Assembly (NCBI GenBank): GCA_020348265.1
Contig: CP070744.1
Location: forward strand, 4,993,559 to 5,057,558
Origin: Phycisphaerales bacterium
Lineage (GTDB): Bacteria > Planctomycetota > Phycisphaerae > UBA1845
Reading direction: 5' to 3'
DNA length: 64,000 nucleotides
Shown here: positions 8,619 through 64,000 of the stretch, piece after piece
How the letters are laid out: every line of letters starts with the position of its first letter
Numbering within the stretch: the first letter of the stretch is position 1
Program-made: the position numbers and the translations under genes
Notes under the pieces: generated by a model
What the model saw: the letters and a program-made list of their open reading frames with translations, nothing else
Told to the model about the DNA's origin: nothing
Database searches by the model: none

Positions 8619-8883
8619 GATCTGTTCACTCCAAAAATGTAGACCTATAGCCGTGGCCGAGCCGAGCATTGGCCGATATGAAAACCTGGCCCAGCCACCC
8701 TCCATTCAACCTTGCGTTCTCGATAGAAGAAGCATGACGCACGCAGTACAGACCGCCCCCGTACTTTGGCGTTGAAACACACCAACCGCGCTTGCCGATG
8801 CACAGCCATAGCTGGTGCGCGAATGAAGTGCCGGCAACAACGCAGCCCACACAGCGCATCCCGAGGGAGCGGTATAGTCCGCT

Positions 8884-13107: not shown

Positions 13108-13951
13108 GCTGCAATATCCTCCTCAACATCGCCGCTACGACATCGCGGCGGTACGCTTGAGAAGCTCGCACATCCGTGATTGGCTTGATCTCCTCACGAG
13201 CGGCGTTCTCACATCTGTTGATGACTTCCGGTGAGAGCGCCATGCCAAGCAACTCTGCTTCCGCGGCTTTTCCACGCAAGGGAACAGGTGCGACGGAGCC
13301 GTATCCCACGCGAGCCCGCGAAATCACGCCGCCCCCCAACTCAACCGCCACGCCAACAGATGCGACGGCAATCTCCATCGCAGGGCGCGTGCCGAACTTG
13401 TCCCAAGCGGAGAACGCGCCTTGAGGCACCGGTTTGAAGCGCAGATGAGTCACGATTTCTCCCGGTGCGACAACCGTGGCGCCGGGGCCTTTGAAGAACT
13501 CTTCAATGGGTACGGTACGGATGGTCGCACCGCTATCAGTATGCGTGGCAACCTCCACTTCCGCGTCGAGCAGTAGGAGGGGGATCGCGCTGTCTGCCGC
13601 CGGTGAGGCGTTACACAGGTTTCCGCCAATGCTAGCCCGATTCCGAATCTGCGGGCAGGCGACGCGCCCCACAGCCTCTGCCAAGATCGGTGCGGCGGCC
13701 CGGATCAGAGGGTCCGCCTCAATCTCGCTCATCGACGTACACGCCCCGATGCGGATATCGCCATTTGCGCGCGATACGCCCTTGAGGTCTTCGATGTGCT
13801 TCAAATCAACGATGGACGCGGGTCGGTCCTGCACACCCGCCGACCAACGTGGAAGCAGGTCCGTCCCACCCGCGAGGGGCGAAACGGGCCAGGCAGATCG
13901 CCCGATCAGCGACAGTGCCTCCTCGATTGTTTTGGGGCGATGATAGATCAA
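13091..13951 (-). CDS. FAD-binding medium subunit of the molybdenum hydroxylase (CoxM-like)
   Basis: MIYHRPKTIEEALSLI N-terminus, AGGTDLLP motif, 286 aa. Gene order M-S-L with 4-nt overlaps. Confidence 0.85.
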   Translation of the reverse strand: MIYHRPKTIEEALSLIGRSAWPVSPLAGGTDLLPRWSAGVQDRPASIVDLKHIEDLKGVSRANGDIRIGACTSMSEIEADPLIRAAAPILAEAVGRVACPQIRNRASIGGNLCNASPAADSAIPLLLLDAEVEVATHTDSGATIRTVPIEEFFKGPGATVVAPGEIVTHLRFKPVPQGAFSAWDKFGTRPAMEIAVASVGVAVELGGGVISRARVGYGSVAPVPLRGKAAEAELLGMALSPEVINRCENAAREEIKPITDVRASQAYRRDVVAAMLRRILQRAASS

Positions 13952-14340: not shown

Positions 14341-14405
14341 GTAGCGCCACCCCTTGTGGGTGGCGCCGTGCGGCGGTTCTCGCCGCCCACAGGGGGTGGC
14401 GCTAC
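14341..14405. repeat. palindromic repeat element, copy A (inverted arms GTAGCGCCACCCCTTGTGGGTGGCGCC / GCCGCCCACAGGGGGTGGCGCTAC)
   Basis: Left arm 14341-14367, right arm 14382-14405, spacer ~14 nt. Each arm is itself internally palindromic. The element ends 20 nt before the iorA start codon. Confidence 0.6.
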
Positions 14406-14425
14406 ACTTGGGTCGCCGGAACGGG

Positions 14426-16351: not shown

Positions 16352-17020
16352 ATGAGTTCACCAAAGTGTGAGTCTGACGCGAAGGGCTGGCGCATTTTGA
16401 TTGCTGGCACCGGTGGTCAGGGAGCGTTGACGGCCGCCCGCGTGTTATGTGGCGTGTTTGTACGGCGCGGGCATGATGTGGTGAGCGGCCAGTTGCACGG
16501 TATGGCTCAGCGGGGAGGAAGTGTGCAGTCGTCCGTGTTGATCGACACCGGGATCAGCCCGGTCATTGGAGCTGGTCAAGCCGACTGCGTGTTGGGTTTT
16601 GAGCCGGTTGAGACGGCACGTGCCCTTTCGTTGATGTCGAAGAACACCACAGTATACATGAACACGTGCGCGGTAGTTCCGTTTGTCGTCGGGCAGCAGT
16701 TGGCGCTAACGAGGGCGGGGGCCGGCTATCCAGCAGTGAAGGATCTCATAGACTGCCTGAAGAAGGTCGCGCAGCGAGTATTCTCATTTGATGCAATGCA
16801 GCGTGCCTTCGACGCTGGATCGCCCAAGGCGCTCAACATGGTTATGTTGGGGTGTCTGTTGGGGTCTGAAGCGCTGCCATGTACAGCAGATGAGTTTTGG
16901 ACCACGACGCTCAAGACCATGCCGTCGAAACTTAAACAGATCAATACTGCTGCGTTCTTTGCCGGCGTTGAATGGGCAAGGGAAGTAGGAAACGCTGCGG
17001 TGGAGGCAAGCGGATCATGA
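16352..17020 (+). CDS. iorB: indolepyruvate:ferredoxin oxidoreductase beta subunit (IorB)
   Basis: ILIAGTGGQGALTAARVL N-terminus, ~220 aa, immediately downstream of iorA (stop/start abut). Confidence 0.85.
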   Translation: MSSPKCESDAKGWRILIAGTGGQGALTAARVLCGVFVRRGHDVVSGQLHGMAQRGGSVQSSVLIDTGISPVIGAGQADCVLGFEPVETARALSLMSKNTTVYMNTCAVVPFVVGQQLALTRAGAGYPAVKDLIDCLKKVAQRVFSFDAMQRAFDAGSPKALNMVMLGCLLGSEALPCTADEFWTTTLKTMPSKLKQINTAAFFAGVEWAREVGNAAVEASGS

Positions 17021-19131
17021 CGATTAGAATCGGCATCGACGTTGGCGGTACCTTCACGGACTTTCTTGTCCTTCGAGATGACAAAGATCCGCAGATCTTT
17101 AAGGTGCTTTCCACACCCGCCGATCCTTCTATCGGTCTGATCAACGGCCTTACCGAGATCGCCGCGAGCTTTGATCTTAAGCTCGGTGAGCTTGCTACTT
17201 CGATCGACACAATTGTCCACGGGACGACCGTTACGACGAATGCAGTGTTGACGCACGGCGGTGCCCGGACAGGTCTTTTGACCACGGAGGGTGTGCGTGA
17301 TGTTCTGCAGATGCGTCGGGGGATACGCGAGGAGCAATACAATAACCGCTATACAAACGTGCCTCCTCTTGTGCCGCGCTATCTGCGCCGGCCGATCAAG
17401 GGGCGATTGAACTACTGCGGTGAGACCCTGCGAGCGCTTGACGTTGAGGGTGCCCTTGAGGCAATTCGCGTGTTTAAGAGGGAAGGCATTGAGGCTGTCG
17501 CCATCTGCTTCATGAATTCCTTCGCGAATCCGCAACAGGAGAAAGAGGCGGCCGAGCTTGTCCGCACGGAGCTGCCTGGTGCGTACTTGACGGTATCCTC
17601 GGATTTCCTTCCCTCAATACGCTTCTATGATCGGGTCAGCTCAACAGTGCTTAATTCTTATGTGGGTCCCAAGCTCAGCTCTTACCTTGATCGTCTGCGG
17701 TTTCGTCTCAAGGAGATTGAATTCGGAGGGATACTGTTACTTATGCAGTCCAATGGGGGCGTGATGGCTCCTGGCGTGGCCAGGGATAGTCCAGCACGTA
17801 CGTTGCTCTCCGGCCCGGCTGCTGGACCGGGCGCCGGGCTTGGGTATGTCCGCCTGCATGGATATGAAGACTGTATAACTGTGGATATGGGCGGTACAAG
17901 CTTTGATGCGGCTCTGGTGCGCGACGGTAAACCTATCGTGGTCACCGACGGCGAGATCAACCGTTACCGAATTGCGCTCCCCATGTTGGATATTGTGACC
18001 ATTGGGGCAGGCGGGGGTAGTATAGGATGGATCGACGAAGGAGGGTTGTTGCGCCTTGGACCACAAAGCGCAGGAGCGGATCCCGGACCGGTATGTTATG
18101 GAAAGGGAGGAACGCTGCCGACGTGTACGGACGCGGATCTTATTCTGGGTTATCTTGACGCCGACTTTTTTGCGGGTGGTAAGATCAGGCTAAATAAGGA
18201 TGCTGCTGCCGGCGCAATCGAGGGACATATCGCACGACCACTGAACATGTCCGTCGAAGAGGCGGCGGCAGGTATGTATCGCGTGATCAATACGAATATG
18301 GCCCAGGGTGTTCGACAGATTACCGTCAAGCGCGGCTTCGATCCCAGGGAGTTTCCATTGGTGGCTGCGGGTGGCGCTGGACCGTTGCATTCATGTATGA
18401 TCTGCCACGAGTTGGAAATCCCCATGTTCATTGTGCCTCGGGAATCTTCTATCTTCTGTGCTGCCGGGATGTTGATGAGTGACCTTCAGCACGACTTCGT
18501 CCGCTCCTTTGTCTCTGTCTTCGAGCATATTGAGTGGGCACAGCTCAACGCGGTGATTAGCGAGATGATGCAGGAGGGCGCTGAGCTTCTCAGGCAGGAG
18601 AATATTCCCGAGGAAAGGCGACGGTTCGTACTGAACTTGGATTGTAGGTATCTGAAGCAGTACCATGAGGTTTCCTTCCCCGTGGCATTAGAGACGGTTC
18701 GTAGGGCGGATGCGACGAGCATTTCCGAGGCGTTTCACGCCGAACATTTGAAGATGTATGGCTACTCTCTGGAAGAGGAGAAGGCTCCCGTCGAACTGAT
18801 TAACGTTCGCCTGCGGGCTGTCGGGGACACAGAGAAGCCTACCTTTGCTGAGGAGGCGTGCGTTGGAGCGGATCCTGAAGATGCGTTGAAGGGCCGCCGC
18901 GCCGTCTACGTTCCGGAAGAGCGGACCTTGCAGGATGTCGCCGTGTATGACGGACACCGGACGCGCTGCGGACACAACATCCCTGGCCCCGCCATAATCG
19001 AACAGGTCAATACGACCCTGTTCATCAGTTCATCTTACGACTGTCTCTGCGACTGTTATGGCAGTTTCGTGACATATCGAAAAGGGCAGGAGGATCGTCT
19101 TCCCGTGACGTTGCAGGAGATGAAGGTATGA
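17017..19131 (+). CDS. hydantoinase/oxoprolinase family protein, A (beta) subunit-like (HyuA/AcxA/CapA-like)
   Basis: MTIRIGIDVGGTFTDF N-terminus (hydantoinase_A hallmark). ATGA start/stop overlap with iorB. Confidence 0.85.
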   Translation: MTIRIGIDVGGTFTDFLVLRDDKDPQIFKVLSTPADPSIGLINGLTEIAASFDLKLGELATSIDTIVHGTTVTTNAVLTHGGARTGLLTTEGVRDVLQMRRGIREEQYNNRYTNVPPLVPRYLRRPIKGRLNYCGETLRALDVEGALEAIRVFKREGIEAVAICFMNSFANPQQEKEAAELVRTELPGAYLTVSSDFLPSIRFYDRVSSTVLNSYVGPKLSSYLDRLRFRLKEIEFGGILLLMQSNGGVMAPGVARDSPARTLLSGPAAGPGAGLGYVRLHGYEDCITVDMGGTSFDAALVRDGKPIVVTDGEINRYRIALPMLDIVTIGAGGGSIGWIDEGGLLRLGPQSAGADPGPVCYGKGGTLPTCTDADLILGYLDADFFAGGKIRLNKDAAAGAIEGHIARPLNMSVEEAAAGMYRVINTNMAQGVRQITVKRGFDPREFPLVAAGGAGPLHSCMICHELEIPMFIVPRESSIFCAAGMLMSDLQHDFVRSFVSVFEHIEWAQLNAVISEMMQEGAELLRQENIPEERRRFVLNLDCRYLKQYHEVSFPVALETVRRADATSISEAFHAEHLKMYGYSLEEEKAPVELINVRLRAVGDTEKPTFAEEACVGADPEDALKGRRAVYVPEERTLQDVAVYDGHRTRCGHNIPGPAIIEQVNTTLFISSSYDCLCDCYGSFVTYRKGQEDRLPVTLQEMKV

Positions 19132-20864
19132 GCGAAGTTGATCCGATCTTGTTGTCCGTATATGCACGTTCCTTCAAGTCCACCACGGATGAGATGAGTA
19201 TTTCGCTTCAGAAGACCACACGCTCACCTATTCTCTGCGAGGCAAAGGATTTTGTTACCGGTATTTACGACGCAGAGGGGAATATACTCGAGCAGACGGA
19301 AAACCTTCCTATACTGTCGTTTTCTCTCGGGCCGGTATGCAAGTATATTGTCGATTACTTTGGGGATAAGATCTACCCAGGCGACGTAATCTTCCATAAC
19401 GACGTTTTCAGCATGGGCAATCAAAACAACGACGTCGCCGTGTACAAGCCGATCTTCCTCGATGACAGGGTGGTGGCATGGTCGGCCTGCAAGGGACACC
19501 AGGCGGACATCGGTGGTGCGGTTGCCGGTGGTTACAACCCCAATGCTACGGAAGTGTGGCAGGAGGCGCTGCGCATTCCACCGGTGAAAGTATGTGAGAG
19601 AGGCGAGTTGCGCAAGGATGTATGGGATCTGATCTTCGCCAATATCCGCTTCGACATTGTGCAGCACGACCTGCGGGCGCAGATGGGTTCATGTGTGGTG
19701 GGGGAAAGGTGCATCCTGCGCCTGCTCGAGAAGTATGGACTGGAGTGCTTCGAGACGCACAAGAAAGCACTCTTCGAGGCGACTCGGCGTATGATGGAGG
19801 CTGAGATCGGAACGATCCCTAACGGTGAATACCGTGGGGAGTCAACGATTTACTTTGACGGGCGCAATCAGGACAGGCATTATCAAATCCGTGTGAAGAT
19901 CACAGTTGAAGACAGGCACATTAAGTTTGACTACACGGGTACCGATGCCCAGTCGAATGCTTTCGTAAACGGCACGTATACGTCGAGCGCGTCGGCCACC
20001 ATACTGACATTCCTTCAGATGGTTAACCCTGACATCCCCCATAATCAGGGAATGGTGGAGCCGATCGAGATTATTATTCCTGAGGGGACGATTCTGAATG
20101 CGGCATTTCCGGCTGCTACAACGTATGGGAATCATCTGTGCCCACCCAATGCGGATGCGATCGCCAGGGCTCTGGCTCCTGTGGTTCCCGATCGAGTGAC
20201 GGCAGGTTGGAATCACTTGCTCTGTTCGTTGACGACCGGAGTCGATCCGCGGAAAGACGACAAGTACGTGGACATTTGCTTTATGGGACTCAAAGGCGGG
20301 TCGGGGGCCTTGAACGGCGTGGATGGGTACGATCACATCGGCATGATCGACGCATCCGGGGGTTTGCTCGATCAAGACTATGAGATGTTCGAGCAACAGA
20401 CCCCGCATGTCTTGGTGAAGCATGAGTACCTATGCGACTCAGCCGGTGCGGGACAGTGGCGTGGTGGTCTGGGCGTCGAGACGATCTTCGAAATAGGCTC
20501 AGATAATACTCAGCTTGTGATCTTCGGCGACGGCGACGTTGAACCGGCGTTTGGACTTCTCGGCGGCGGCAAGGGCAGCCTTAACTCGATTTCGGTGCGC
20601 TATCCGGATGGGAGGGAGCACACACCATTGCCTCTGGATCTGCTCACCGGCGTACCCAAAGGAACCGTTTATCATCAGGTAGCCGGCGGTGGCGGCGGGT
20701 ATGGCGATCCGCATAAGCGCCGCAAGAATGAGGTCTTTGAGGAGGTGCGCAACGAGGTAATCTCGGTGGAAGCTGCGCGGGATGTATATGGTGTAGCTGT
20801 GGATCGTCAGATACTTGAGATCGACCAGGCTGCAACGAGTTTACTTAGGAACGGAGGAGGTTAG
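19128..20864 (+). CDS. hydantoinase/oxoprolinase family protein, B (alpha) subunit-like (HyuB-like)
   Basis: 578 aa, hydantoinase_B-like. ATGA overlap with the upstream A-subunit gene. Confidence 0.85.
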   Translation: MSEVDPILLSVYARSFKSTTDEMSISLQKTTRSPILCEAKDFVTGIYDAEGNILEQTENLPILSFSLGPVCKYIVDYFGDKIYPGDVIFHNDVFSMGNQNNDVAVYKPIFLDDRVVAWSACKGHQADIGGAVAGGYNPNATEVWQEALRIPPVKVCERGELRKDVWDLIFANIRFDIVQHDLRAQMGSCVVGERCILRLLEKYGLECFETHKKALFEATRRMMEAEIGTIPNGEYRGESTIYFDGRNQDRHYQIRVKITVEDRHIKFDYTGTDAQSNAFVNGTYTSSASATILTFLQMVNPDIPHNQGMVEPIEIIIPEGTILNAAFPAATTYGNHLCPPNADAIARALAPVVPDRVTAGWNHLLCSLTTGVDPRKDDKYVDICFMGLKGGSGALNGVDGYDHIGMIDASGGLLDQDYEMFEQQTPHVLVKHEYLCDSAGAGQWRGGLGVETIFEIGSDNTQLVIFGDGDVEPAFGLLGGGKGSLNSISVRYPDGREHTPLPLDLLTGVPKGTVYHQVAGGGGGYGDPHKRRKNEVFEEVRNEVISVEAARDVYGVAVDRQILEIDQAATSLLRNGGG

Positions 20865-22087: not shown

Positions 22088-22486
22088 ATGTCGCGAGAAA
22101 AGAGGGTGCGGGTACTTGTTGCAAAACCCGGATTAGATGGGCATGACGTAGGGGCTAAGGCCGTCGCCCGCACCTTGATGGATGCCGGCTTCGAAGTTGT
22201 CTATACCGGACTGAAAAAGTCCCCCGAGGAAATAGTTCTGCGGGCACGCGAAGAGAAGGTGGATGTACTTGGCCTGTCTATACTATCCGGCTCACACATT
22301 CCCATCTGCCAACAGATAAAGAACCTGCTGGATAAACACGAGGTGCCTCCTTTGCTATGGATCGTAGGTGGCAACATTCCACTCCAGGATCACGATGAAC
22401 TCAGGCGGATTGGAGTCGATGGCGTCTTCGCAGTTGGATCGTCTCTTCAGGAAATCATCGACTTCATCAACGAGAGAATATCATGA
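22088..22486 (+). CDS. B12-binding subunit of a methylmalonyl-CoA-mutase-family acyl-CoA mutase (small subunit)
   Basis: RVLVAKPGLDGHDVGAKAVARTLMDAGFEVVYTG (the DxHxxG cobalamin-binding motif). The track ORF is over-extended upstream to 21878. Confidence 0.8.
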   Translation: MSREKRVRVLVAKPGLDGHDVGAKAVARTLMDAGFEVVYTGLKKSPEEIVLRAREEKVDVLGLSILSGSHIPICQQIKNLLDKHEVPPLLWIVGGNIPLQDHDELRRIGVDGVFAVGSSLQEIIDFINERIS

Positions 22487-24093
22487 AATGGGAAGAGAGG
22501 TCTGAAGTTAGACCCGTGTTCAACGAGTCCGGGCTTGAAATCAAGCCGGTCTATTCGCCCGAGGATGTTGAGGAATCCGGGGGATGGAATAGCATCGGCT
22601 CTCCAGGGGAATTCCCCTTCACACGCGGAATTCATAAAGAAATGTATCGGAAACGCCCCTGGACCATGCGCCAGTATGCGGGTTTCGGCAAACCGGAGGA
22701 AACTAACGAGCGTTTTCGCTATCTCATAGCCAATGGGCAGACGGGTCTGAATGTGGCTTTCGATCTACCGACCCAGAGTGGGTTGGATTCGGATGACCCT
22801 GCCGCCCAGGGTGAGGTGGGCCGAGTGGGCATGGCTGTTGATACGCTCAAGGATTTCGAGATTGCATTCGACGGCATCGATCTCGATAAGATAACCGTGT
22901 CTCTGACGATTAACGGGGCCGCGGTTACTCTGATTGCCATGTACTTCGCCATGGCCAAGAAGCGCGGGTATGACATAAGCAAGCTGCGCGGGACCGCCCA
23001 GAACGATATTCTCAAGGAATTCGTTGGCCGGGGAACATGGGTCTTCCCGGTGGAACCTTCAATCAAACTTGTCGGTGACACCATCCTCTACTGTGCGGAG
23101 AATGCTCCTCTGTACAGCCCGGTCAGCGTTTGTGGTTACCATATTCGCGAATCAGGGGCCAATCCGATCCAAGAGATGGCTTATGCATTCTGCATTGCCA
23201 AAGCATACATTGACCACGTGCTTGAAAGAGGAATGGAGATTGACGAGTTTGCCTCGCGCCTCTCATTCAACTTCGACATTCATGGGAATATATTCGAACA
23301 GGTGGCCAAGTTTCGCGCAGGCAGGCGACTGTGGGCCAAGATCCTCAAGACGGACTATGGAACGCAGAATCCCAAGTCGATGTGGTTACGAATGATTGCG
23401 GGCGGCGGCGGCGGCGGCCTGACTATCGAGCAGCCCGAGAATAACATAATCCGAACGGCTTATTATGCGCTGGTCAGTGCTTTGTCGGGCACACAGACGA
23501 TGGCGCTGTGCTGCTACGACGAAGCATACACCATTCCCTCGGAGAAGGCCGCCCGTGTAGCGCTAAGAACAATGCAGATTCTCGTCGAAGAGATGGGATT
23601 GTGTGACACCGTGGATCCCCTGGCTGGATCATACTACATCGAGACGTTGACCAACCAAATGGAGGAGAAGATCCGCGCTCTTATGAAGGAGGTTGATGCA
23701 CAAGGAGGTATCGTAAAGGCCATCGCTGAGGGACATATACAGAACACCGTCTCCAAGCAGGCATTCGAGAACCTGCGGAAACTTCAAAGCGGTGAAACGC
23801 GCAAGGTGGGTGTCAACTGCTATCGAATCGAGGAAGAGCAGCAGGCTGTCGAGTTTCATCGATTCAAGGAGGAGGATTGCGCGGAGCAGATTGCCCGATT
23901 GAATAAGGCACGATCCGAACGGGATAGCGCGAGAGTGGGCAACGCATTGGCGACCGTATTGGATGAAGCCAAAGCGGGGCGCAACGTAATGCCTGCGATT
24001 ATCAATGCAGTGGAGGCTTATGCGACGGTCGGCGAGATCACTCAGTGCCTGGTGGATGTATACGGCCGGTATGAAGAGCCGGTACGTTTCTGA
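22483..24093 (+). CDS. methylmalonyl-CoA-mutase-family catalytic (substrate-binding TIM-barrel) subunit
   Basis: FPFTRGIHKEMYRKRPWTMRQYAGFG...NERFRYLIANGQTGLNVAFDLPTQ; 536 aa. ATGA overlap with the B12-subunit gene. Confidence 0.85.
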   Translation: MKWEERSEVRPVFNESGLEIKPVYSPEDVEESGGWNSIGSPGEFPFTRGIHKEMYRKRPWTMRQYAGFGKPEETNERFRYLIANGQTGLNVAFDLPTQSGLDSDDPAAQGEVGRVGMAVDTLKDFEIAFDGIDLDKITVSLTINGAAVTLIAMYFAMAKKRGYDISKLRGTAQNDILKEFVGRGTWVFPVEPSIKLVGDTILYCAENAPLYSPVSVCGYHIRESGANPIQEMAYAFCIAKAYIDHVLERGMEIDEFASRLSFNFDIHGNIFEQVAKFRAGRRLWAKILKTDYGTQNPKSMWLRMIAGGGGGGLTIEQPENNIIRTAYYALVSALSGTQTMALCCYDEAYTIPSEKAARVALRTMQILVEEMGLCDTVDPLAGSYYIETLTNQMEEKIRALMKEVDAQGGIVKAIAEGHIQNTVSKQAFENLRKLQSGETRKVGVNCYRIEEEQQAVEFHRFKEEDCAEQIARLNKARSERDSARVGNALATVLDEAKAGRNVMPAIINAVEAYATVGEITQCLVDVYGRYEEPVRF

Positions 24094-37489: not shown

Positions 37490-37910
37490 GACTTAACCTC
37501 CGGACTGCCGCTGGGTGGTCACCGATGACCACCTCGAGGCAATCGCACCACCTTGAATATAAGACGCGGGATTACCGGCGCCTATTTGAATTCCAGGCTC
37601 TTTTCATAATCGACCAAAACCGCCCTGCAAAGAGGCAGTCGAAAAACCGGATGTAATAACCCGTCCGGTGATTATCTGAGGCCTCGGAACGGCGTTTTTA
37701 ACCGTCTGGGCGACCTGCCACCACCCCGACCGGCAGTTGGCTGGGTGGGTTCGTCTGACGATCCATTGTCAGGATGTCGGGAATGACCGTGCAACGGCTT
37801 AGGCCGCGACTCATTCCATCCAGCCGCGTTGATTCGCCAGGGGTATCCAGGTACGGTAAACGTGAGATCAAGTGCGACAGACAAGGTCCAGTAACGCAAA
37901 GGCACGCTCA

Positions 37911-40034
37911 ATGGCCAACGATCCCGCCCAGCCAACTGCAGCACGGCTTGCCGGTTCGATCTGGGCGCCGGTTTTGTTGTTGGTAGTCATAACCGCAGTG
38001 GCCTACCTGCCGGTCGTGTCCTGCGGGTTCATCTGGGATGACGATTCCTATGTCCAGGAGAACCAGACTCTGCGCTCGGTCAGCGGGTTGAGCCGGATTT
38101 GGTTTGAACTCGGCGCTACCCTTCAGTACTACCCCCTGGTCCACACGACCTATTGGCTTGAGTACAGGCTTTGGGGATTGAACCCTACCGGCTATCACGT
38201 GGTCAACATACTCTTGCACGCGCTCGGCGCTGTGCTGCTTTGGCGGGTGTCGAGATTCCTTAGTGTACCAGCCGCGTGGGTGGTAGCTGCCGTCTTTGCT
38301 TTGCATCCCGTGCACGTAGAATCGGTTGCATGGATCACCGAACGCAAGAACGTTCTGTCGGGCGTTTTCTACTTCGGTGCGGCGTTGGCCTTCCTGCGCT
38401 TCGCACTCTCGCCACAGGAGACAGCAGTGCCAAAGGGGAAGAGGCGCTGGCTCTATGTGGCGGCATTGGTGTTGTTCCTCTGCGCGCTGCTCAGCAAAAC
38501 GGTGACCTGCACGCTTCCGGCGGCGTTGCTGGTGGTTCTCTGGTGGCATCGCAAGGGCATCCGTTGGGCGGACGCGCTTCAGTTGGCGCCCTTTTTCATT
38601 CTGGGAATAGCCCTGGGTCTGTTGACCGTCTGGATGGAGAGGCACGAGGTCGGTGCCATCGGAGAAGAGTGGAGCTTATCGCCTGTCGAACGCTGCCTGA
38701 TTGCCGGACGGGCCCTGTTCTTCTACACAGGCAAGCTTGTCTGGCCACACCCGTTGATATTCGTCTATCCGCGATGGGGAATCGATGCGACAATCTGGTG
38801 GCAGCACGTCTATCCGGTCATGGCCGTCATCGTTGTGATTGTGCTCTGGCTGTGTCGACGCCGCATCGGTCGCGGTCCATTGGCGGCCGTGTTGCTTTTC
38901 GGCGGGACTCTGGTGCCAGCTCTAGGCTTCTTCGACATATATCCCATGCGCTATTCCTTCGTTGCCGATCACTTCCAGTACCTGGCAGGCGTCGGTGTCA
39001 TAGCACTAGTGGTAGTCGCCGGCTATCGCGCCCTGGATGGACTCGGGACTTGGGGAACGCGCTTAGCACCTGCGGTGGCGATTGTTGCGTTGGTGACACT
39101 CGGTGCATTGACCTGGCGTCAGGGACGCGTCTATCTGGATGCGGAAACGCTCTGGCGTGATACGCTCAGCAAGAACCCCGACGTGTGGCTTGCGCACAAC
39201 AACCTCGGCAACATACTCGAAAGACAGGGCAAGCTCGACGAGGCGATAGACCATCATCAACAGGCCCTTCAGGTCGAGCCGCGATTCGCGCTAAACGTCG
39301 CCCACTCTCATTACAACTTGGGCAACGCGTTGGCCGCACAACGCAAGTTCACCGAGGCGACAAAGCACTATCGTGAGACACTTCGGAACAAACCCGATTA
39401 TGTCGACGCCCGCGTCAATCTGGGAAACATGCTGCTAAAGCAGGGCAATCTGGATGAGGCGGTCAGGCAATATCGCCAGGCGGTTAAGGACACGCCCAAG
39501 TCATCCAATGCTCACTACAACTTGGGCACTGCCTTGTTCAGGCAAGGTAAACTGGAAGAGGCTTCGGCACATTTTCGCCAGGCGGTCGAGATCAACCCCG
39601 GCCTGGCAAGGGCGCATTACATGCTCGGATTGGCCCAGGCGGGATTGGGGCTGTTTTCCGAGGCGCTTCAGCAGTTTCGTGAGGCGGCGCGCATTAAACC
39701 TGATTGGCCGGCACCTTTGGCCAAGGCTGCGTGGATTATGGCCGTAAACCCGGACGCATCCATCCACGACGAGACGGAGGCAATCCGAATGGCCGAGCGT
39801 GCTGCCGATATGACCGGGCGTCGCAACGGCCCGATTCTTGACACTCTGGCGGCTGCCTACGCTGCAGCAGGTCGGTTCGATCAGGCCGTCGCGACAGAGC
39901 AAGCCGCAATCGACTTGGCATCTCAACGCCGCGACGACCGTCTGCTGGAGCACATGCGCCTGCGACTTGATCTCTACAAGCAGGAGAGGCCCTATCAAGA
40001 AATCGAGCCGCCCGGAAGCGGAGTGCGTCCTTAG
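37911..40034 (+). CDS. TMTC/PMT-like polytopic membrane protein (DUF1736-type) with C-terminal TPR array, second paralog
   Basis: GFIWDDDSYVQENQTLRSV, YYPLVHTTYWLEYRLWGLNPTGYHVVNILLHALGAV and LHPVHVESVAWITERKNVLSG (DUF1736 hallmarks). The C-terminal TPRs include AHNNLGNILERQGKLDEAIDHHQQALQVEP. Confidence 0.8.
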   Translation: MANDPAQPTAARLAGSIWAPVLLLVVITAVAYLPVVSCGFIWDDDSYVQENQTLRSVSGLSRIWFELGATLQYYPLVHTTYWLEYRLWGLNPTGYHVVNILLHALGAVLLWRVSRFLSVPAAWVVAAVFALHPVHVESVAWITERKNVLSGVFYFGAALAFLRFALSPQETAVPKGKRRWLYVAALVLFLCALLSKTVTCTLPAALLVVLWWHRKGIRWADALQLAPFFILGIALGLLTVWMERHEVGAIGEEWSLSPVERCLIAGRALFFYTGKLVWPHPLIFVYPRWGIDATIWWQHVYPVMAVIVVIVLWLCRRRIGRGPLAAVLLFGGTLVPALGFFDIYPMRYSFVADHFQYLAGVGVIALVVVAGYRALDGLGTWGTRLAPAVAIVALVTLGALTWRQGRVYLDAETLWRDTLSKNPDVWLAHNNLGNILERQGKLDEAIDHHQQALQVEPRFALNVAHSHYNLGNALAAQRKFTEATKHYRETLRNKPDYVDARVNLGNMLLKQGNLDEAVRQYRQAVKDTPKSSNAHYNLGTALFRQGKLEEASAHFRQAVEINPGLARAHYMLGLAQAGLGLFSEALQQFREAARIKPDWPAPLAKAAWIMAVNPDASIHDETEAIRMAERAADMTGRRNGPILDTLAAAYAAAGRFDQAVATEQAAIDLASQRRDDRLLEHMRLRLDLYKQERPYQEIEPPGSGVRP

Positions 40035-40208
40035 CTATTGTCCGCTGCGGTACGATGGCTGTATACTCTGCCCATCGGCGTCGGTTTCGCAACCCCGGCC
40101 GCCAGGGAGATTGGTTCAAGGAGCCTTCCCGCGAGTGTTCTGCGAGAGTGCACGACGGTAGTGTCACTGGTCAGTCACGGACGGATTGGACTCGAGAGCA
40201 GATTAGTG

Positions 40209-42215
40209 ATGACCAGCTTCACCCCAGGTGCATTCAATCCTTCAGACTACATCAGCTCGATCCAAAGACCACACGGGCCCGCTGGACCGCTGCCCATGAC
40301 CCTCGACGAGGCACAAAAGCGAGGATGGGATGAGCTTGACGTGGTCTTCGTCACGGGTGACGCCTATGTCGACCATCCCAGCTTCGCAACCGCCATTTTG
40401 GCCCGCGTGCTGGAAGCCGCCGGCTTCCGCGTTGGGATCATCGCTCAGCCTAACTGGCACAGCTGCGATTCGTTCAAGGCCTTCTCTCGACCGAGACTCT
40501 GCTTCGCCATCAGCGCCGGCAACATGGACGCGATGCTCAACCACTACACCGCCAGCCGCAAGGTGCGCAACGACGATGCCTACTCACCCGGCGGACGGAT
40601 CGGGCTTCGTCCGGATCGGGCCACCATCGTCTATTGCCAACGTGCCCGCGAAGCATACAGCGGTGTGCCGATCATCGCCGGTGGCGTCGAAGCGAGCCTG
40701 CGCCGCTTGGCCCACTATGACTATTGGAGCGATACGGTCAGACGATCCATCCTGTTCGATTCGAAGGCGGACCTGGTCGTCTTCGGCATGGGCGAGTCTG
40801 CAATCGTGGAGATAGCTCGCCGCCTTGATCGTGGCGAGACGGTCCGCGACCTGCGAGATATGCGCGGTGTTGCCTTCGCAATGGGGACGAAGGAGACACC
40901 TCCCAAGGGTGATCGTGTCGCCGTGCTGCCTTCATACGAGCAGATAAGAGCAGACAGGTTCGCATTTGCTGAAGCGACGCGTCTGACCCACATGGAAACA
41001 AACCCATACAACGCCCGGACGTTAGTACAATGGCACGATCGACAGGTCGTGGTGTGCAACCCTCCAAGGTTACCTGAGTCTCAGGATGCAATGGACTTCT
41101 TCTATAGTCTTCCCTTCACGCGCAAACCCCACCCCAGTTACACGGAATGCATTCCCGCCCACGAAGTCATCAAGGATTCCATCACCATTATGCGGGGTTG
41201 CTTGGGTGGTTGCGTGTATTGCTCGATCACCACACACCAGGGACGAATAGTCCAATCGCGCAGTAGAGGGTCCGTCGTTCGCGAGGTGGCGGGCTTGACG
41301 CGAGAAGAAGAATTCAAAGGGATTGTGTCTGACCTGGGTGGTCCCACAGCAAACATGTACGAAATGCGCTGCCTCAAACCCGAAATAGAGGCAGTGTGCA
41401 GGAGACTTTCATGCATACACCCTAAGGTGTGTTCGTTGCTCGGCACGGATCATGGCCCGCTCGTCGAACTTATGAAGGAAGCTCGCGCGCAAGATGGGAT
41501 CCGCAAGGTGCTCATCGCCAGCGGTGTGAGGATGGATCTGGCCGGACTCTCGCCCGAGTACATTGAGGAGCTAGTTGCCCACCATGTCGGCGGCCATCTG
41601 AAAGTCGCCCCCGAGCACGCTGACAACAAGACGCTGTCTTTGATGAAACGTCCCCCGCTGGAGAGCTTCGAGGCATTCGCCGGAGAGTTTGACAAAAGGT
41701 CAAACGAAGCTGGCAAGGAGCAGTACCTTGTTCCCTACTTCATCGCTTCGCATCCTGGTTGCGATCTGAGCGCGGCAATCGAACTGGCGATCTTCCTGAG
41801 ACAGCGGGGATACAGGCCCGAGCAGGTACAGGATTTCATCCCCACTCCGATGGACATTGCCGCGTGTATGTACCACACCGGTCTGGATCCGATGACAAAG
41901 AAGCCGGTCTACGTGGCGAAGTTCTTGCGCGATCGCAGGCTACAGCGCGCACTCCTGCAGTTCTTCAAACCCGAGAACTACTTTCTCGTTCGAAAAGCGC
42001 TTGTGCAGGCGGGCAGAGAGGATCTGATAGGTAGTGGCGGCAACTGTCTGATACCTGCCAAACCGCCTGCAGCGGCGCTTAAGCTGCATCGCGAGCCATC
42101 GAAACGCAGGACCATCAGGGTTAAACGACGTGAACCACGCCGGAAACCTGCAGGAAAAGGCTACCGCCCGGGTCGGGCGACCGCGCCCCGCAGATCACGC
42201 AAGAGAAGCTCGTGA
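40209..42215 (+). CDS. ygiQ: YgiQ-family radical SAM protein (UPF0313)
   Basis: N-terminal [47 protein letters not shown], radical-SAM Cys cluster [10 protein letters not shown], and a basic C-terminal tail. The track ORF start at 40038 is over-extended. Confidence 0.85.
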
Positions 42216-44615: not shown

Positions 44616-45986
44616 CTATCCCTTCGCATGCCATTCGGGGAGCGCTGAAGGGCCCGTGGGCCGCCGTCCGTAGAAGAGATCATCCGCCAGCAGCGCGAGG
44701 CGCCGCGCAATCGCGCTACGCGGCAGTGTCCGGCGTACCATGTTATGAAGAGAAGTGGTGGGGTGCGCATACGGGCACACTCGCATACAGAGGGCACAGT
44801 CCGTGCCCTGCACGCGCCAGAATCGGTAGCAGCGTTCCTGATGCGTCTGCCACTTCTCGACACCGTTGTGAACCGCTTTGTCACCTGAATCCACCGCCCC
44901 TGACGGACAACAAGTAGCGCATTTCTTGCAGAACTCGCAGAAGTGCTGCACGCCGATCGCGACGGGTTCGTCCTGGACGAGAGGCAGGTTCGTGGTGACA
45001 ACGGAGAGGCGCACCCGAGGGCCGAACCGTGGGGTCATCAGCACGCCGAGTCGGCCCAGTTCGCCTAGACCCGCGTCAACCGCAACGGGAACACAGAGCA
45101 CCCGGTAATTCCCGTCGACATGTGCCCGAGCTTCGTAGCCCAGAAGGTTGATATACCGGGCTATGATCATTGCGATCTTGGCTGCTTCAAAGTACTTGAA
45201 TGCCGTCTCCGTGATCGTCGTGCTGTCCGGAGCGTGGCGCACCATGTCAAAGCTCATCTCAACACCGATCGCGACCGCGTGAGTATGGTCCAGCTCAATC
45301 GGCTCTCCCCATTCCCCCGGCGAGCGCCCAATGTGACTGTATACGTGGGCCGGGTTCAGCTTCGTGGTGCCCACCATCTTTGCCCCGAGGTAGTGGGCAA
45401 AACCCTTGATTCGACGCGTGGACTCCGCAGCTGTGAGTTCCACCGGAGCGCCCTCGACCGGCTCAGGAGTCCAATCGACCTCACGCGTGATTCGGTCCAA
45501 CACATCCGACGCGGCACTCTGGAAGGGAGAGGTAGTACTGTGATATGTTCGCGAGCCGGGATACCCCAGGGGCGCCTGCGAACGGACCTTTTCATCGAAA
45601 GCCGTCTTGTCCGGATGTTCCCGATAGTACTCGTCGAACTCGGGCGAGCCGGGCTTGAGGCGGTAAAAGCGGTGGAAGATGGCGTCCCGCTCGTCAATTC
45701 GTTGCGGATCACCGGGAATCTGTAGTCGAGGAATCGGACCGGTTGGCACAAGAACCACCACGACGCCGATAAACACCGCCAGGACGACAGCAAGAATGAT
45801 CCAAGGCTTGGCTGGAAAGTCCACCAAAAGGGCGGCAGCGGATAGCGCAAGCGCAGGGCAAAACAGAGTGAAAGCCACGCCCGCGGGTCGCCATCTCCTT
45901 TCCCGCAGAGAGGTGATCACGAATGCCACCGCCGTCAGGGAGACAACGGCAAAACAAACCCATCCTGCGATCGGAATCCAATCCAT
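44616..45986 (-). CDS. membrane-anchored reductive-dehalogenase-like (RdhA/QueG-superfamily) iron-sulfur protein
   Basis: Two N-terminal TM helices. C-terminal CEFCKKCATCCP (Cx2Cx2Cx3CP) and CALCMRVCP (Cx2Cx3CP) cluster motifs. Start taken at MDWIPIAGW; the track ORF extends to 46091. Confidence 0.65.
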   Translation of the reverse strand: MDWIPIAGWVCFAVVSLTAVAFVITSLRERRWRPAGVAFTLFCPALALSAAALLVDFPAKPWIILAVVLAVFIGVVVVLVPTGPIPRLQIPGDPQRIDERDAIFHRFYRLKPGSPEFDEYYREHPDKTAFDEKVRSQAPLGYPGSRTYHSTTSPFQSAASDVLDRITREVDWTPEPVEGAPVELTAAESTRRIKGFAHYLGAKMVGTTKLNPAHVYSHIGRSPGEWGEPIELDHTHAVAIGVEMSFDMVRHAPDSTTITETAFKYFEAAKIAMIIARYINLLGYEARAHVDGNYRVLCVPVAVDAGLGELGRLGVLMTPRFGPRVRLSVVTTNLPLVQDEPVAIGVQHFCEFCKKCATCCPSGAVDSGDKAVHNGVEKWQTHQERCYRFWRVQGTDCALCMRVCPYAHPTTSLHNMVRRTLPRSAIARRLALLADDLFYGRRPTGPSALPEWHAKG

Positions 45987-46142
45987 CTGTTCACCTTTGT
46001 GCAAGCAGCTTCTACGTTCCTCCGCACGTGCGTATAAATCATACTGGATGGAGAGTGCTGGGACAGCCGACCCAGGATTGACCAGCGGCAACGGCCAACC
46101 GAGAATCCAACAGGCAAGCGGAGCTGTTGCCTGCGGAAGATA

Positions 46143-46994
46143 TTGGAATTCGGAAGGAAACTCCCCGTGCCACCGGAACGCCGTCTCAAGCGAAGCCGCG
46201 AGAAAACGATCCTGCGCGTGATTATCGCCGTACTATTGCTCTGCTCGGCCGGTGCCATCGGTTTTCGCGTCTGGCAGTGGGGGGTCGTGCCGGGTGATGC
46301 GCCGATCATTGGACTGTCGCTTGACACCGCTTGGCACAGTCGGCTTGGGTTTACCAGCAAGACCTATGAAACCGCGCTTTCCCGAGTGGACGCACGAGTC
46401 CGGTCGATCCGTCCGGACATGCATTCAGCCAAAGACGTCTTGGACGACGTTCATGCGTTGATTCTATCAGGCGGCGGTGATGTCGATCCGGCGTTGTCCG
46501 GTGCGGATCCGAGCAGTTCGCGGTTCGTGGATCGTGAGCGAGATGAGCTGGAGATGGCCCTGATCCAAGGAGCCATCGAACGACGCATGCCCATCTTGGG
46601 AATCTGCCGCGGAATTCAGATACTGAATGTCGCCCACGGCGGCACGCTCCGTGGGCTGCGCAACGACCCATTCCTGCATGATATTCACGGAGTGACATGG
46701 GACAGTCTCAGCGCGCACGACGTGACCATTATGGACGACTCGCTCTTGGCGCGAATCGTGGGGGCAGGTGAGCACAGCGTAAACTCAATGCATGAGCAGG
46801 CGGTGGATCAACTCGGCGAAGGACTTCGCGCGGTTGCCCGATCCCCGGACGGAACGATCGAGGCATTGGAGCGGACGGATCGGCGATTCGTGATCGGCAT
46901 TCAATGGCACCCGGAGATCCTGTCTCTGGAGGACTCCAGTGCCCTGGCGGTGTTTCGGGCGCTTGTCCACGAGGCAAACGCCTACAGGGAATGA
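46143..46994 (+). CDS. class I glutamine amidotransferase-like / gamma-glutamyl hydrolase (peptidase C26, PuuD-like) with N-terminal TM anchor
   Basis: ILGICRGIQILNVAHGGTL (catalytic Cys), HALILSGGGDVDP, IQWHPE. Confidence 0.8.
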   Translation: MEFGRKLPVPPERRLKRSREKTILRVIIAVLLLCSAGAIGFRVWQWGVVPGDAPIIGLSLDTAWHSRLGFTSKTYETALSRVDARVRSIRPDMHSAKDVLDDVHALILSGGGDVDPALSGADPSSSRFVDRERDELEMALIQGAIERRMPILGICRGIQILNVAHGGTLRGLRNDPFLHDIHGVTWDSLSAHDVTIMDDSLLARIVGAGEHSVNSMHEQAVDQLGEGLRAVARSPDGTIEALERTDRRFVIGIQWHPEILSLEDSSALAVFRALVHEANAYRE

Positions 46995-47000
46995 AACTAG

Positions 47001-48656
47001 CTAATCCTGCCTGTCGCCGCGCCGCTGTCGCAGCGCCAGCACCGCACAGAAATACAGGAACAGGAAGTTAAGCGCGTGATAGCCTGCATGGGCAATTGCC
47101 CCGGCAATCGTGCCGAGGTCCTCGGCATCACCAAAAAGACGCGACGCCAGCCTCGAGGGCCAGGCGAGCAACCATCCAAGATTGTTGCTGGTTGGTTCCC
47201 AGTTTATCAGAAAGATCGACGTTGCGAACAGGAGTGAGGTAAGCAGAAGAACTCCCCAGGTAGGTCGGCGAAGCATGTCCCGCAAGCGCCGGCGTGGTCT
47301 TTCCGTCTCCAGATCTTCCTCGGAGGTGAGCACGCCCATCGACAGCTTGCCGTGTTTGAGGGCCAGCGCGATCGGATAAAGTACGCCCAGGGCGGGCTTG
47401 GGATCGTCAGCCTGAATAACGTCGCTGATCGTGTCCTGGTGCTTCTCGAACATACCTTTCAGGTACGCACTCAAATCCTTGGGGTCGGCGGCCTGTTTCA
47501 GAGCGTCCCAGAAGGGCCTGAGCCGTATGCTCTGCAGGTCTGATCGGCCAACAACCTTGAGTTCGCGGTACACCTTTTCGAAGCGACGCAGGCGCTCTTT
47601 GTCGTGGGCGATTTCCTGCAACGTCGCCACCAGCCCGGTGATGGGCGTCTCCGTCCGCTTGTCATAGTCCACCTCGGGTACTGCGTCGATTTGTTCTCCG
47701 CAGGCAATACGGAACAACAGATGTGGATAATCGACGTTGGCGGCAATGGCCTGGGACAACCCCCCGAAAAACCGGGGATTCAGTTCAATCAAAAACACGG
47801 GACCATCCGGGGCGCCGCGGAAATCCAGCTCAGCTATTCCGTGCCATGCGAGATGATCGAGCAGTCTTCGTGCGGCCCGTTCCGCCTCAGGAAGTTGTAC
47901 GGTCTCGCGCAAGGCTCCTGCGCCCGTATCTCTCGGAAAGGAACGCACGTTGCGATATGTCATCCCCGCAACATATCTGCCGTGGTCGTAGAGCATGGTC
48001 GTGCAGTAGTCCTCCCCCTCGACGAACTGCTGCACGATCGGGTATTCCGACGGTTCGAGGCCGAAGCCGGTGACGAAGTCCTTGAAAGATGAAGTCAGCT
48101 CTTCTGGTGAGCTTACTCTCTTGAGCCCCACACCGGCGGCACCTTCACGCACTTTGAGAAACGCTGGAAAACCCAGTTCCGGGACTGCCCGATACAGTTC
48201 GTCGGTGCTGGTGAACTGTCGCGTAGGCGGAGTCGGGATTCCCAACTCTGCAGCCAAGGACGCCAGCTTACCCTTATCATGCGTGCGGACCATGTTCTCG
48301 TGTGTGGTAAGCGCCAGTCTGACATGCGGCTCGAATCGCTGTCGATGCTGGGCGATCAGCCACGTCTCTTTGTGCACGGGGATAAGAACGTAGGGTTCGT
48401 CCGCAGTGAGCTTCAGCTCCCCGACCTTCTGCTCGAGAGCATCAAGAAAAGCCGCGGGTTGGTCGGATACCGAGGGGTATTGAAAGTCGCCCGTGCAGTA
48501 TCGCGAGAAGAAGCAAGGGGCGAAGGGAGCTTCTTCCCCGCAGTACACCTCGATTCCCCGGCGTCCGAGACTCCGTGTGATGGCCAACGCATGCCAACCG
48601 CGCGCGTATGTGACGATCGCTCGAGCCATAGCCTTCTCCGAAGCGTAGAGTCGCAC
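47001..48656 (-). CDS. ATP-grasp domain protein with C-terminal transmembrane segment
   Basis: ATP-grasp fold signatures (GFPAFLKVREGAAGVGLKRV, ELNPRFFGG) and C-terminal hydrophobic helices (WGVLLLTSLLFATSIFLINW). Confidence 0.7.
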   Translation of the reverse strand: MRLYASEKAMARAIVTYARGWHALAITRSLGRRGIEVYCGEEAPFAPCFFSRYCTGDFQYPSVSDQPAAFLDALEQKVGELKLTADEPYVLIPVHKETWLIAQHRQRFEPHVRLALTTHENMVRTHDKGKLASLAAELGIPTPPTRQFTSTDELYRAVPELGFPAFLKVREGAAGVGLKRVSSPEELTSSFKDFVTGFGLEPSEYPIVQQFVEGEDYCTTMLYDHGRYVAGMTYRNVRSFPRDTGAGALRETVQLPEAERAARRLLDHLAWHGIAELDFRGAPDGPVFLIELNPRFFGGLSQAIAANVDYPHLLFRIACGEQIDAVPEVDYDKRTETPITGLVATLQEIAHDKERLRRFEKVYRELKVVGRSDLQSIRLRPFWDALKQAADPKDLSAYLKGMFEKHQDTISDVIQADDPKPALGVLYPIALALKHGKLSMGVLTSEEDLETERPRRRLRDMLRRPTWGVLLLTSLLFATSIFLINWEPTSNNLGWLLAWPSRLASRLFGDAEDLGTIAGAIAHAGYHALNFLFLYFCAVLALRQRRGDRQD

Positions 48657-62899: not shown

Positions 62900-64000
62900 G
62901 TGTCTATTACTAACGGCAGACCTCTCACCGGCGCCTTCTACTTGGATGGCGACCAAGCTGTAGCCGAAGGAGCAATCGCCGCGGGCTGCAACTTCGTGGC
63001 CGGTTATCCGATTACACCGTCGACGGAGATCGTCGAGCGGCTGGCGGCCAGGTTCCCGAGCACCGGTGGGACTTTTATCCAGATGGAGGATGAGATTGCT
63101 TCATCCATTGCCATTCAAGGCGCCGTCTGGGGCGGGGCGAAAGCCATGACGGTGAGTTCGGGTCCGGGCATCTCCTTGATGATGGAGCACATCGGATTTG
63201 CAGCTATGACCGAGGTGCCTTGTGTGTTCGTCAATGTCCAGCGGGGCGGACCGTCGACCGGACTCCCAACCTTGCCCGCTCAGGCTGATATGATGCAGGC
63301 CCGCTGGGGATCGCATGGCGACTACGAGATCATCGCCCTTTCACCCACCAGTCCGCAGGATTGCTTTGACCTGATCATCCACGCCTTCAATCTCTCCGAG
63401 AAGTACCGCGTGCCTGTGATGTTCATGATGGACGAGAGTGTGGGGCATCTTACCGAAAAGGTAGTGATCCCACCCCGCGACCAGATCGAAGTGACTCCCC
63501 GCCGGTACACCAAGTTGCCCCCGGGGGAGTACGAACCCTATAGAACGGGCGAAGATCTAGTTCCAGAGTTCGCCAGGGCTGGGCGAGGGTATCGTTTCCA
63601 CATCACCGGCCTGACTCACAATGAAAAGGGCTATCCGGTCATGGATGCCGGTTGCCAGGAGGCGTTGGTCAATCGCCTCGTAGACAAGATCAGGAATAAC
63701 GTCGACGAGATCTCCCTGTACAGCGAGGACGGCGTTGAGGATGCCGACATCGTGGTTATCACCTACGGTATAAGCTCCCGCGTGAGCAGGCCGGCAATTC
63801 GCCAGGCCCGTGCAAAGGGAGTAAAGGTGGGACACTTGCGCTTGACGGTGGTGTGGCCTTTCCCCGAGCAACACATCCGTGAACTCGCCGGCAGAGTAAA
63901 AGCCCTCGTCGTTCCCGAGCTAAACCTCGGGCAGATAGTCCTCGAGGTCGAGCGCTGTTCCGCCGGCAAGTGTAACGTGCGCTCCGTTCCTCACGCTGGG
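62900..64000 (+). CDS. 2-oxoacid (2-oxoglutarate/pyruvate):ferredoxin oxidoreductase alpha subunit, 5' part (runs off the window end; absent from the supplied ORF track)
   Basis: GTG start at 62900. Manual translation: VSITNGRPLTGAFYLDGDQAVAEGAIAAGCNFVAGYPITPSTEI...GPGISLMMEHIGFAAMTEVPCVFVNVQRGGPSTGLPT. Open to nt 64000 with no stop. Confidence 0.8.
   Translation, partial: MSITNGRPLTGAFYLDGDQAVAEGAIAAGCNFVAGYPITPSTEIVERLAARFPSTGGTFIQMEDEIASSIAIQGAVWGGAKAMTVSSGPGISLMMEHIGFAAMTEVPCVFVNVQRGGPSTGLPTLPAQADMMQARWGSHGDYEIIALSPTSPQDCFDLIIHAFNLSEKYRVPVMFMMDESVGHLTEKVVIPPRDQIEVTPRRYTKLPPGEYEPYRTGEDLVPEFARAGRGYRFHITGLTHNEKGYPVMDAGCQEALVNRLVDKIRNNVDEISLYSEDGVEDADIVVITYGISSRVSRPAIRQARAKGVKVGHLRLTVVWPFPEQHIRELAGRVKALVVPELNLGQIVLEVERCSAGKCNVRSVPHAG

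Follow-up and report, generated by a model that had tools for sequence, protein, structure and literature searches.

Hybrid putative reductive dehalogenases with N-terminal transmembrane (TM) helices were described by Jochum (2018) and reviewed by Atashgahi (2019; PMC6797604). They are proteins of about 450 amino acids with three TM helices and neither a twin-arginine translocation (Tat) signal nor an rdhB gene; in the reviewed class the number of N-terminal helices varies from one to three (mostly three), and the loop between TM1 and TM2 holds a conserved acidic EXE motif. A survey in Microbiome (2025; PMC12219181) names the clade 'transmembrane respiratory RdhA-like' and reports it in 287 metagenome-assembled genomes (MAGs) from 33 phyla. 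In another membrane-bound reductive dehalogenase, DhPceA2B2, cryo-electron microscopy located menaquinone between two C-terminal helices of PceA and TM helices 2 and 3 of PceB (Cimmino 2023). Here we examine a gene in a 64,000-nucleotide stretch of Phycisphaerales DNA (contig CP070744.1, positions 4,993,559 to 5,057,558; this whole stretch is called the window below). Judged by its sequence, the encoded protein belongs to this hybrid RdhA class, also called transmembrane, which is known from anoxic sediments.

Family membership and catalytic core

An earlier note, made from the bare sequence, assigned the protein to the RdhA/QueG cobalamin-[4Fe-4S] superfamily on the strength of a Cx2Cx2Cx3CP and Cx2Cx3CP motif pair, and preferred RdhA to QueG. 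Profile, sequence and fold comparisons all agree with this preference and place the protein in the RdhA branch. The NCBIfam reductive dehalogenase model TIGR02486 scores 174.1 bits against a curated cutoff of 160.35 (E=6.1e-51), whereas the QueG model TIGR00276 reaches 36.1 bits, far below its cutoff of 200. The closest sequences in the Protein Data Bank (PDB) are NpRdhA (5e-54, 187 bits), SmPceA (6e-41, 144 bits) and DhPceA (3e-32), with QueG at 3e-5; the TIGR02486 and NpRdhA values together rule out a chance match. With the AlphaFold model of the protein (pLDDT 86.8, pTM 0.87) as a query, the top 36 Foldseek matches are all RdhA structures (E~1e-19), and the core superposes on NpRdhA (6ZY1/4RAS) with an rmsd of 2.5-3.1 Å over about 300 columns. 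QueG structures come after them, some 12 orders of magnitude weaker (E~1e-6, best 6e-7; TM score 0.33), and then the B12 chaperones CblC and CblD, which have the cobalamin-binding fold in common with the RdhA model. A cobalamin-binding core of the nitroreductase-like fold is thereby predicted, and neither a better match to QueG or ferredoxins nor a missing cobalamin core, the two outcomes named in the earlier note as speaking against RdhA, was found.

The profile check proposed in that note succeeded with TIGR02486 and failed with Pfam. The PF13486 'Dehalogenase' family scores 14.1 bits, under its gathering threshold of 24.3, and the match is confined to the last third of the profile; the precomputed PF13486 match is missing in most homologues too. 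Fer4_7 is the sole Pfam family above threshold in this protein, which explains why many homologues bear the name 'ferredoxin' at JGI. PF13486 misses the whole clade while TIGR02486 catches it, and Pfam-based pipelines label the homologues 'ferredoxin' or 'hypothetical'. Censuses of rdhA genes built on PF13486 will consequently undercount the TM-fused class.

The product is identical to GenBank entry UCE59694.1 ('MAG: reductive dehalogenase [Phycisphaerales bacterium]'), encoded on a closed 5.67-Mb contig. Automatic annotation had already recognised it, and it is a Phycisphaerales representative of a class that is published, widespread and uncharacterised. The gene had been placed at 44616-46091. 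This minus-strand open reading frame does exist and spans 491 amino acids when counted from its first TTG, but the coding part is 44616-45986 (456 amino acids plus stop). The ATG at 45986 is almost certainly the true start: a Shine-Dalgarno sequence, AAGGTG (45992-45997), lies 5 nucleotides upstream, and the GenBank record and the homologues begin at the equivalent methionine. We thus rejected the TTG-initiated version, and take the in-frame segment 45987-46091 as a non-coding 5' leader. All features of the protein given below lie on the minus strand.

The predicted cobalamin-binding core, delimited by alignment to NpRdhA and SmPceA and by Foldseek, covers residues ~186-335 (44982-45431). The alignment to NpRdhA and PceA suggested in the earlier note recovered the catalytic pair: Tyr265 (45192-45194) aligns with Y426 of NpRdhA and Y246 of SmPceA, and Arg326 (45009-45011) with K488 and R305, respectively. 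To gauge conservation we aligned 96 family members (39-100% identity, median 56%), referred to below as the relatives, and both residues are invariant in 96/96. The two Fe-S motifs were also found. Motif 1, CEFCKKCATCCP, occupies residues 350-361 (44904-44939; Cx2Cx2Cx3CP, with C350, C353, C356, C360 and P361) and is present in 96/96 relatives. Motif 2 (44772-44831) runs from C386 to the segment CALCMRVCP at residues 397-405 (44772-44798; Cx2Cx3CP, with C397, C400, C404 and P405). C386 is a further candidate Fe-S ligand, and all eight cysteines are invariant across the relatives (96/96). Arg388 aligns with R552 of NpRdhA, an arginine kept in 66 of the 96. The 456 residues hold a single core; residues 58-223 of NpRdhA align just as a weak second match to the same region of the query.

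The family is large. At E<1e-10 the protein has matches in over 1,100 database clusters, and nearly all members of the top 120 are 450-475 amino acids long and 55-74% identical to it over their full length. When one genome per species was scanned, 320 relatives came up, of which we kept 80, with one locus per MAG. These come from Phycisphaerae and other Planctomycetota, Myxococcota/'Deltaproteobacteria', Bacteroidota, Fibrobacterota, KSB1, Zixibacteria, Ignavibacteria/Kapaibacteria, Chloroflexota, Acetothermia, Calditrichota and others. The closest homologous locus (73% identity) belongs to a MAG labelled CSMAG_386.

Membrane anchor and sidedness

Two N-terminal TM helices had been noticed earlier; the AlphaFold model has three, at residues 3-28 (45903-45980), 32-54 (45825-45893) and 60-79 (45750-45809), and hydropathy alone merges the second and third. 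The first, modelled with pLDDT >90 and also seen in hydropathy, follows a short acidic N-tail that is predicted to lie outside. Loop 1, 'ERRWR' (residues 29-33; 45888-45902), is predicted to be cytoplasmic, and loop 2 (DFPAKP), which precedes TM3 and is uncharged, to be outside. Glu29 of loop 1 is found in 95/96 relatives, the remaining one having a gap. The second EXE position is an arginine here, and Glu, Arg or Lys in 28, 36 and 20 of the 96 relatives, respectively. A search for the RRxFxK motif of Tat signals in the protein found none, as the earlier note had said, and the N-terminus is a TM helix.

On which side of the membrane does the catalytic domain lie? Over the 96 relatives, loop 1 holds on average 3.14 lysines and arginines and the stretch after TM3 holds 4.24, against 0.38 for the N-tail and 0.81 for loop 2. 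Corrinoid and Fe-S proteins fold in the cytoplasm and Sec cannot thread such proteins, so that the cytoplasmic side is the only orientation fitting a cofactor-loaded domain that has no Tat signal. From the positive-inside rule and this need of cofactor-loaded proteins for Tat, we infer that the N-terminus would be outside, and that the catalytic domain would lie in the cytoplasm, pressed up to the membrane's inner face.

In the juxtamembrane linker RxDERDAIFHRFYRL, directly after TM3, the residues D98-E99-R100 (45687-45695) are present in 96/96 relatives, although model confidence is at its lowest in this region (residues 103-106 have pLDDT <50).

The idea of an RdhB-RdhA fusion, with fused helices resembling RdhB, is unsupported by sequence. 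Searches of all PDB chains (among which we assume chain B of 8Q4H, PceB, to be included) at E<=10 with the TM module, as a single sequence by phmmer and as a 19-sequence profile, returned no reductive dehalogenase chain of any kind; the best matches were Kv channels, at E~0.25. We also looked for a stand-alone TM-plus-linker module in 1.84 billion representative sequences. This gave 449 hits, and among the best 150 the short ones were colinear N-terminal fragments (median unaligned tail, 16 amino acids), that is, fragments of full-length genes with no sign of a split form. Across these sequences, the module occurs solely fused to this catalytic domain.

Electron donor and competing readings

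The C-terminus offers a clue to the electron donor. Two helices at residues 412-439 (44670-44753), seen in the AlphaFold model and aligned to chain A of 8Q4H, carry H414, R418, D435 and Y439. In DhPceA, K489, H495, R499 and D515 are near the menaquinone head group and Y520 lines the pocket (Cimmino 2023). This numbering equals that of 8Q4H chain A plus 48; seven residues used as landmarks (S, W, K, H, R, D, Y) confirm the offset. In the alignment H495, R499 and D515 correspond exactly to H414, R418 and D435, K489 corresponds to H408, and Y520 falls one column from Y439. Conservation in the relatives is high (H414 and R418, 95/96 each; D435, 92/96; Y439, 94/96), whereas the cytosolic NpRdhA has Gly/Ala at the positions of H414 and R418. 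As far as alignment can tell, the kept menaquinone-pocket residues suggest quinol as the electron donor and, given the Gly/Ala of NpRdhA, speak more for quinol linkage than for a free catabolic enzyme.

We lean, with little more than even confidence, towards a quinol-linked, cytoplasm-facing hybrid RdhA with a corrinoid, two [4Fe-4S] clusters and its own three-helix anchor, acting as a dehalogenase. In such an enzyme the fused anchor would take the place of both the Tat signal and a separate RdhB. The (mena)quinol pool would feed electrons into a pocket that the C-terminal helices (H414/R418/D435/Y439) build together with the TM helices and Glu29 of loop 1, and these electrons would pass through the distal and then the proximal [4Fe-4S] cluster to yield cob(I)alamin. 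The latter would reductively strip the halogen from an organohalide, probably a natural one, with Tyr265 as the putative proton donor and Arg326 stabilising Tyr265. Quinol oxidation on the cytoplasmic side would release protons into the cytoplasm; since both quinol oxidation and substrate reduction would take place there, on the N side, the enzyme would be non-electrogenic, and its role would be that of an electron sink or detoxifier and not of a proton-motive terminal reductase.

Several points weigh against this proposal. Menaquinol, at about -75 mV, is thermodynamically a poor donor for the Co(II)/Co(I) couple, and an enzyme with no periplasmic (P-side) location has no obvious way to exploit the membrane potential. 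The TM module seems to lack detectable homology to PceB, remote homology being possible for TM proteins as short as these. The conservation of the family, with a median identity of 56% across phyla and a uniform length of ~457 amino acids, is atypical for substrate-specialised RdhAs, and the Pfam dehalogenase profile fails, as described above. The literature up to mid-2026 yielded no biochemical or physiological test of any TM-fused member of the class, which makes the earlier description of such proteins as functionally under-explored a fair one. Finally, the pocket residues are also kept in RdhAs of quinone-free organohalide respirers (Cimmino 2023), so that their conservation is no proof of quinol use.

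Of the other readings, the one that survives best is a membrane-tethered catabolic or detoxifying dehalogenase like NpRdhA, in which the TM helices would serve only to keep the enzyme close to lipophilic substrates, and a soluble low-potential donor of the cytoplasm (ferredoxin or flavodoxin) would supply the electrons. We regard it as unlikely. In potential, ferredoxin is a much more suitable donor for the Co(II)/Co(I) couple than menaquinol; the core is nearer to NpRdhA than to SmPceA by bit score, with the low rmsd given above, and is likewise predicted to be cytoplasmic. Moreover, the window has several ferredoxin-reducing 2-oxoacid oxidoreductases: genes of this type lie at 14354-17020 (+) (TPP_enzyme_C/POR_N/Fer4) and 62900-64000 (+) (POR_N/PFOR_II), and indicate a ferredoxin-linked, anaerobe-type metabolism. 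However, all-versus-all clustering of the open reading frames at 84 homologous loci revealed no reductase or ferredoxin gene as a conserved neighbour, nor rdhB, rdhC, rdhK or rdhT, and an NpRdhA-type NAD(P)H reductase, fused or linked, was found neither in the protein nor among its neighbours nor at the 84 loci. The TM module and the loop-1 glutamate are more invariant than expected of a passive tether, the His/Arg of the DhPceA quinone pocket are kept here and absent in NpRdhA, and the duplicated NpRdhA-type domain is missing. The related proposal of the earlier note, a non-respiratory catabolic RdhA of the kind known from marine aerobes, is not supported: besides the missing duplicate domain and reductase module or partner, the protein is an integral membrane protein that groups with the hybrid class of anoxic sediments, and the oxidoreductases of the window are typical of anaerobes.

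Alternatively, the protein may be no dehalogenase at all but a quasi-housekeeping corrinoid reductase that carries out a QueG-like reduction, for instance of an epoxide, on a ubiquitous, non-halogenated and possibly membrane-associated substrate. The gene occurs as a single, stand-alone copy that no regulator or rdh accessory gene accompanies; its length is uniform and its identity 39-74% across Planctomycetota, Bacteroidota, Myxococcota, KSB1, Zixibacteria and others, and it is found in fermentative taxa for which organohalide respiration is not known. QueG provides a precedent within the superfamily, and the literature searched, up to mid-2026, yielded no experimental dehalogenation by the class. 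We nevertheless find this doubtful, in view of the invariant RdhA-specific Tyr/Arg pair, of the RdhA profile above and the QueG profile below their cutoffs, and of a gene context that hints at no other substrate. A wider variant, which we hold to be just as doubtful, would make the whole TM-fused family not a pollutant-type dehalogenase but a constitutive quinol-linked corrinoid reductase of the cytoplasmic face, built as a mirror image of PceA2B2 with an anchor unrelated to RdhB. Its single substrate would be natural and ubiquitous: a common marine organobromine, or else a compound without halogen that is reduced in the manner of QueG. A conserved constitutive reductase would explain the single-copy, regulator-free and highly conserved spread of the family over dozens of phyla, fermenters included.

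A classical exoplasmic respiratory RdhA, with its catalytic domain in the periplasm, is very unlikely. The 2025 survey does label the class 'respiratory' (PMC12219181), and Table 1 of Atashgahi (2019; PMC6797604) gives mixed TMHMM calls for it, cytoplasmic for some members and exoplasmic for about half. These mixed calls are probably prediction noise. The protein has no Tat motif, and the charge bias, consistent over the 96 relatives with +3.1 in loop 1 and less than 1 in both the N-tail and loop 2, puts the domain after TM3 inside, as does the inability of Sec to export a cytoplasm-folded corrinoid/Fe-S protein.

There remain the epoxyqueuosine reductase QueG and a generic protein with a ferredoxin domain. 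Only the Fer4_7 match and the JGI names could be invoked for them, and the low TIGR00276 score, the weak QueG fold match and the full RdhA-type core with its catalytic Tyr/Arg rule both out for practical purposes.

Genomic context and comparison with described systems

The rdhA homologue is monocistronic, with no adjacent rdhB, in agreement with the earlier note. Its upstream neighbour is divergent and belongs to Peptidase_C26/GATase (E=1.8e-51) with an N-terminal hydrophobic anchor (the membrane C26 amidotransferase of the earlier note); its downstream neighbour is a convergent DUF1579 lipoprotein gene. Neighbours differ wholly between homologues. Those here are a C26 protein and an ATP-grasp ligase; a 3.9-Mb Phycisphaerales genome has arginase and DAO, and another genome has PQQ propellers and cytochrome bd. 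The sole recurrent neighbours are generic response regulators, present in 16/84 loci at variable distance. In the 64-kb window we found no cobalamin riboswitch or other Rfam family and no paralogue of the RdhA homologue, and promoter and terminator scans gave nothing above shuffle expectation. The window does encode a B12-dependent methylmalonyl-CoA mutase (PF01642, E=5e-194; 22483-24093, +), which argues that the organism uses, or has access to, cobamides.

Other genes of the window deserve mention. The membrane-anchored Peptidase_C26/gamma-glutamyl hydrolase-like protein (46143-46994, +) is convergent with a 551-amino-acid ATP-grasp ligase (ATPgrasp_Ter, E=1.4e-11; 47001-48656, -) that has hydrophobic C-terminal helices, and the two may form a membrane-bound peptide-ligase/hydrolase pair. 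This pair also occurs at the homologous locus L001 and is not linked to rdhA homologues elsewhere. A minus-strand segment at 10212-13951 includes an 806-amino-acid open reading frame (10212-12632, -) for a subunit of a xanthine-dehydrogenase-type molybdenum hydroxylase (MoCoBD_1/2, Ald_Xan_dh_C), adjoined by frames of 163 and 286 amino acids that stand, judged by position only, where the 2Fe-2S and FAD subunits are expected. Next to these genes is a hydantoinase A gene (Pfam) at 16972-19131, with an adjoining open reading frame at 19128-20864. We also observed a giant open reading frame of 2,134 amino acids (2301-8705, -) and a YgiQ-type radical SAM protein (Radical_SAM_N and DUF3362; 40038-42215, +), directly after a 720-amino-acid protein (37872-40034, +) whose N-terminal half is hydrophobic and whose C-terminal half holds TPR repeats.

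Should the class prove active, it would have the widest spread of all reductive dehalogenase types in anoxic sediments (one survey counts 33 phyla) and be relevant to the natural cycling of halogens. If its members face the cytoplasm and are possibly quinol-fed, they would be electron sinks or detoxifiers, and counts of rdhA genes in metagenomes would have to be read differently. The present gene adds a Phycisphaerales example and is no easier a test case than those of cultured carriers (Marinifilum, Caldithrix). What novelty remains concerns the class as a whole, its donor, substrate and sidedness, and not the UCE59694.1 locus.

Compared with prototypical respiratory RdhAB systems, the protein has no twin-arginine signal, and its gene has no rdhB and no rdhC, rdhK or rdhT adjacent to it. 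With QueG it shares the superfamily (cobalamin and two [4Fe-4S] clusters), the predicted cytoplasmic location and the lack of a Tat signal; QueG differs in not being membrane-bound and in its tRNA-binding HEAT domain, which is not found here, besides the profile and fold distances already given. The closest solved core is that of NpRdhA from Nitratireductor pacificus (PDB 4RAS/6ZY1; ~29% identity, E=5e-54), which also has no Tat signal and is cytoplasmic, and whose Tyr426 and Arg552 have equivalents here. Unlike our protein, NpRdhA is soluble, ~700 amino acids long, carries a duplicated vestigial cobalamin domain, and is an oxygen-tolerant enzyme from an aerobe; its Lys488 is replaced by the PceA-like Arg326.

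DhPceA2B2, a menaquinol:organohalide oxidoreductase (PDB 8Q4H; Cimmino 2023), resembles the protein in its catalytic fold and cofactors, in being membrane-bound through three TM helices and in its C-terminal two-helix element with aligned His/Arg/Asp. It is only 23% identical, however, and its anchor is the separate subunit PceB, whereas the anchor here is fused and shows no detectable PceB homology. Its catalytic domain is periplasmic and preceded by a Tat signal, where ours has no Tat signal and is predicted to be on the cytoplasmic side. The acidic residues E61/E63 of PceB are in the TM2-TM3 loop on the P-side, while here the acidic residue is in the TM1-TM2 loop, predicted to be cytoplasmic. 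At most, the arrangement would thus mirror PceA2B2 from the N-side, as an analogue and not as a simple PceB-PceA fusion.

The hybrid RdhA class remains the best counterpart. Planctomycetota/Phycisphaerae are absent from the 2019 list of its carriers, and loop 1 reads E-R-R here and not E-x-E. The protein shares with the class a length of ~450-460 amino acids, three N-terminal TM helices, no Tat signal and no rdhB, both Fe-S motifs and the glutamate of the TM1-TM2 loop. Homologous loci in MAGs listed in Table 1 of Atashgahi (2019) match it over nearly their full length, at 40% identity in SM23_31, 54% in KSB1 4572_119 and 49% in KSB1 4484_87.

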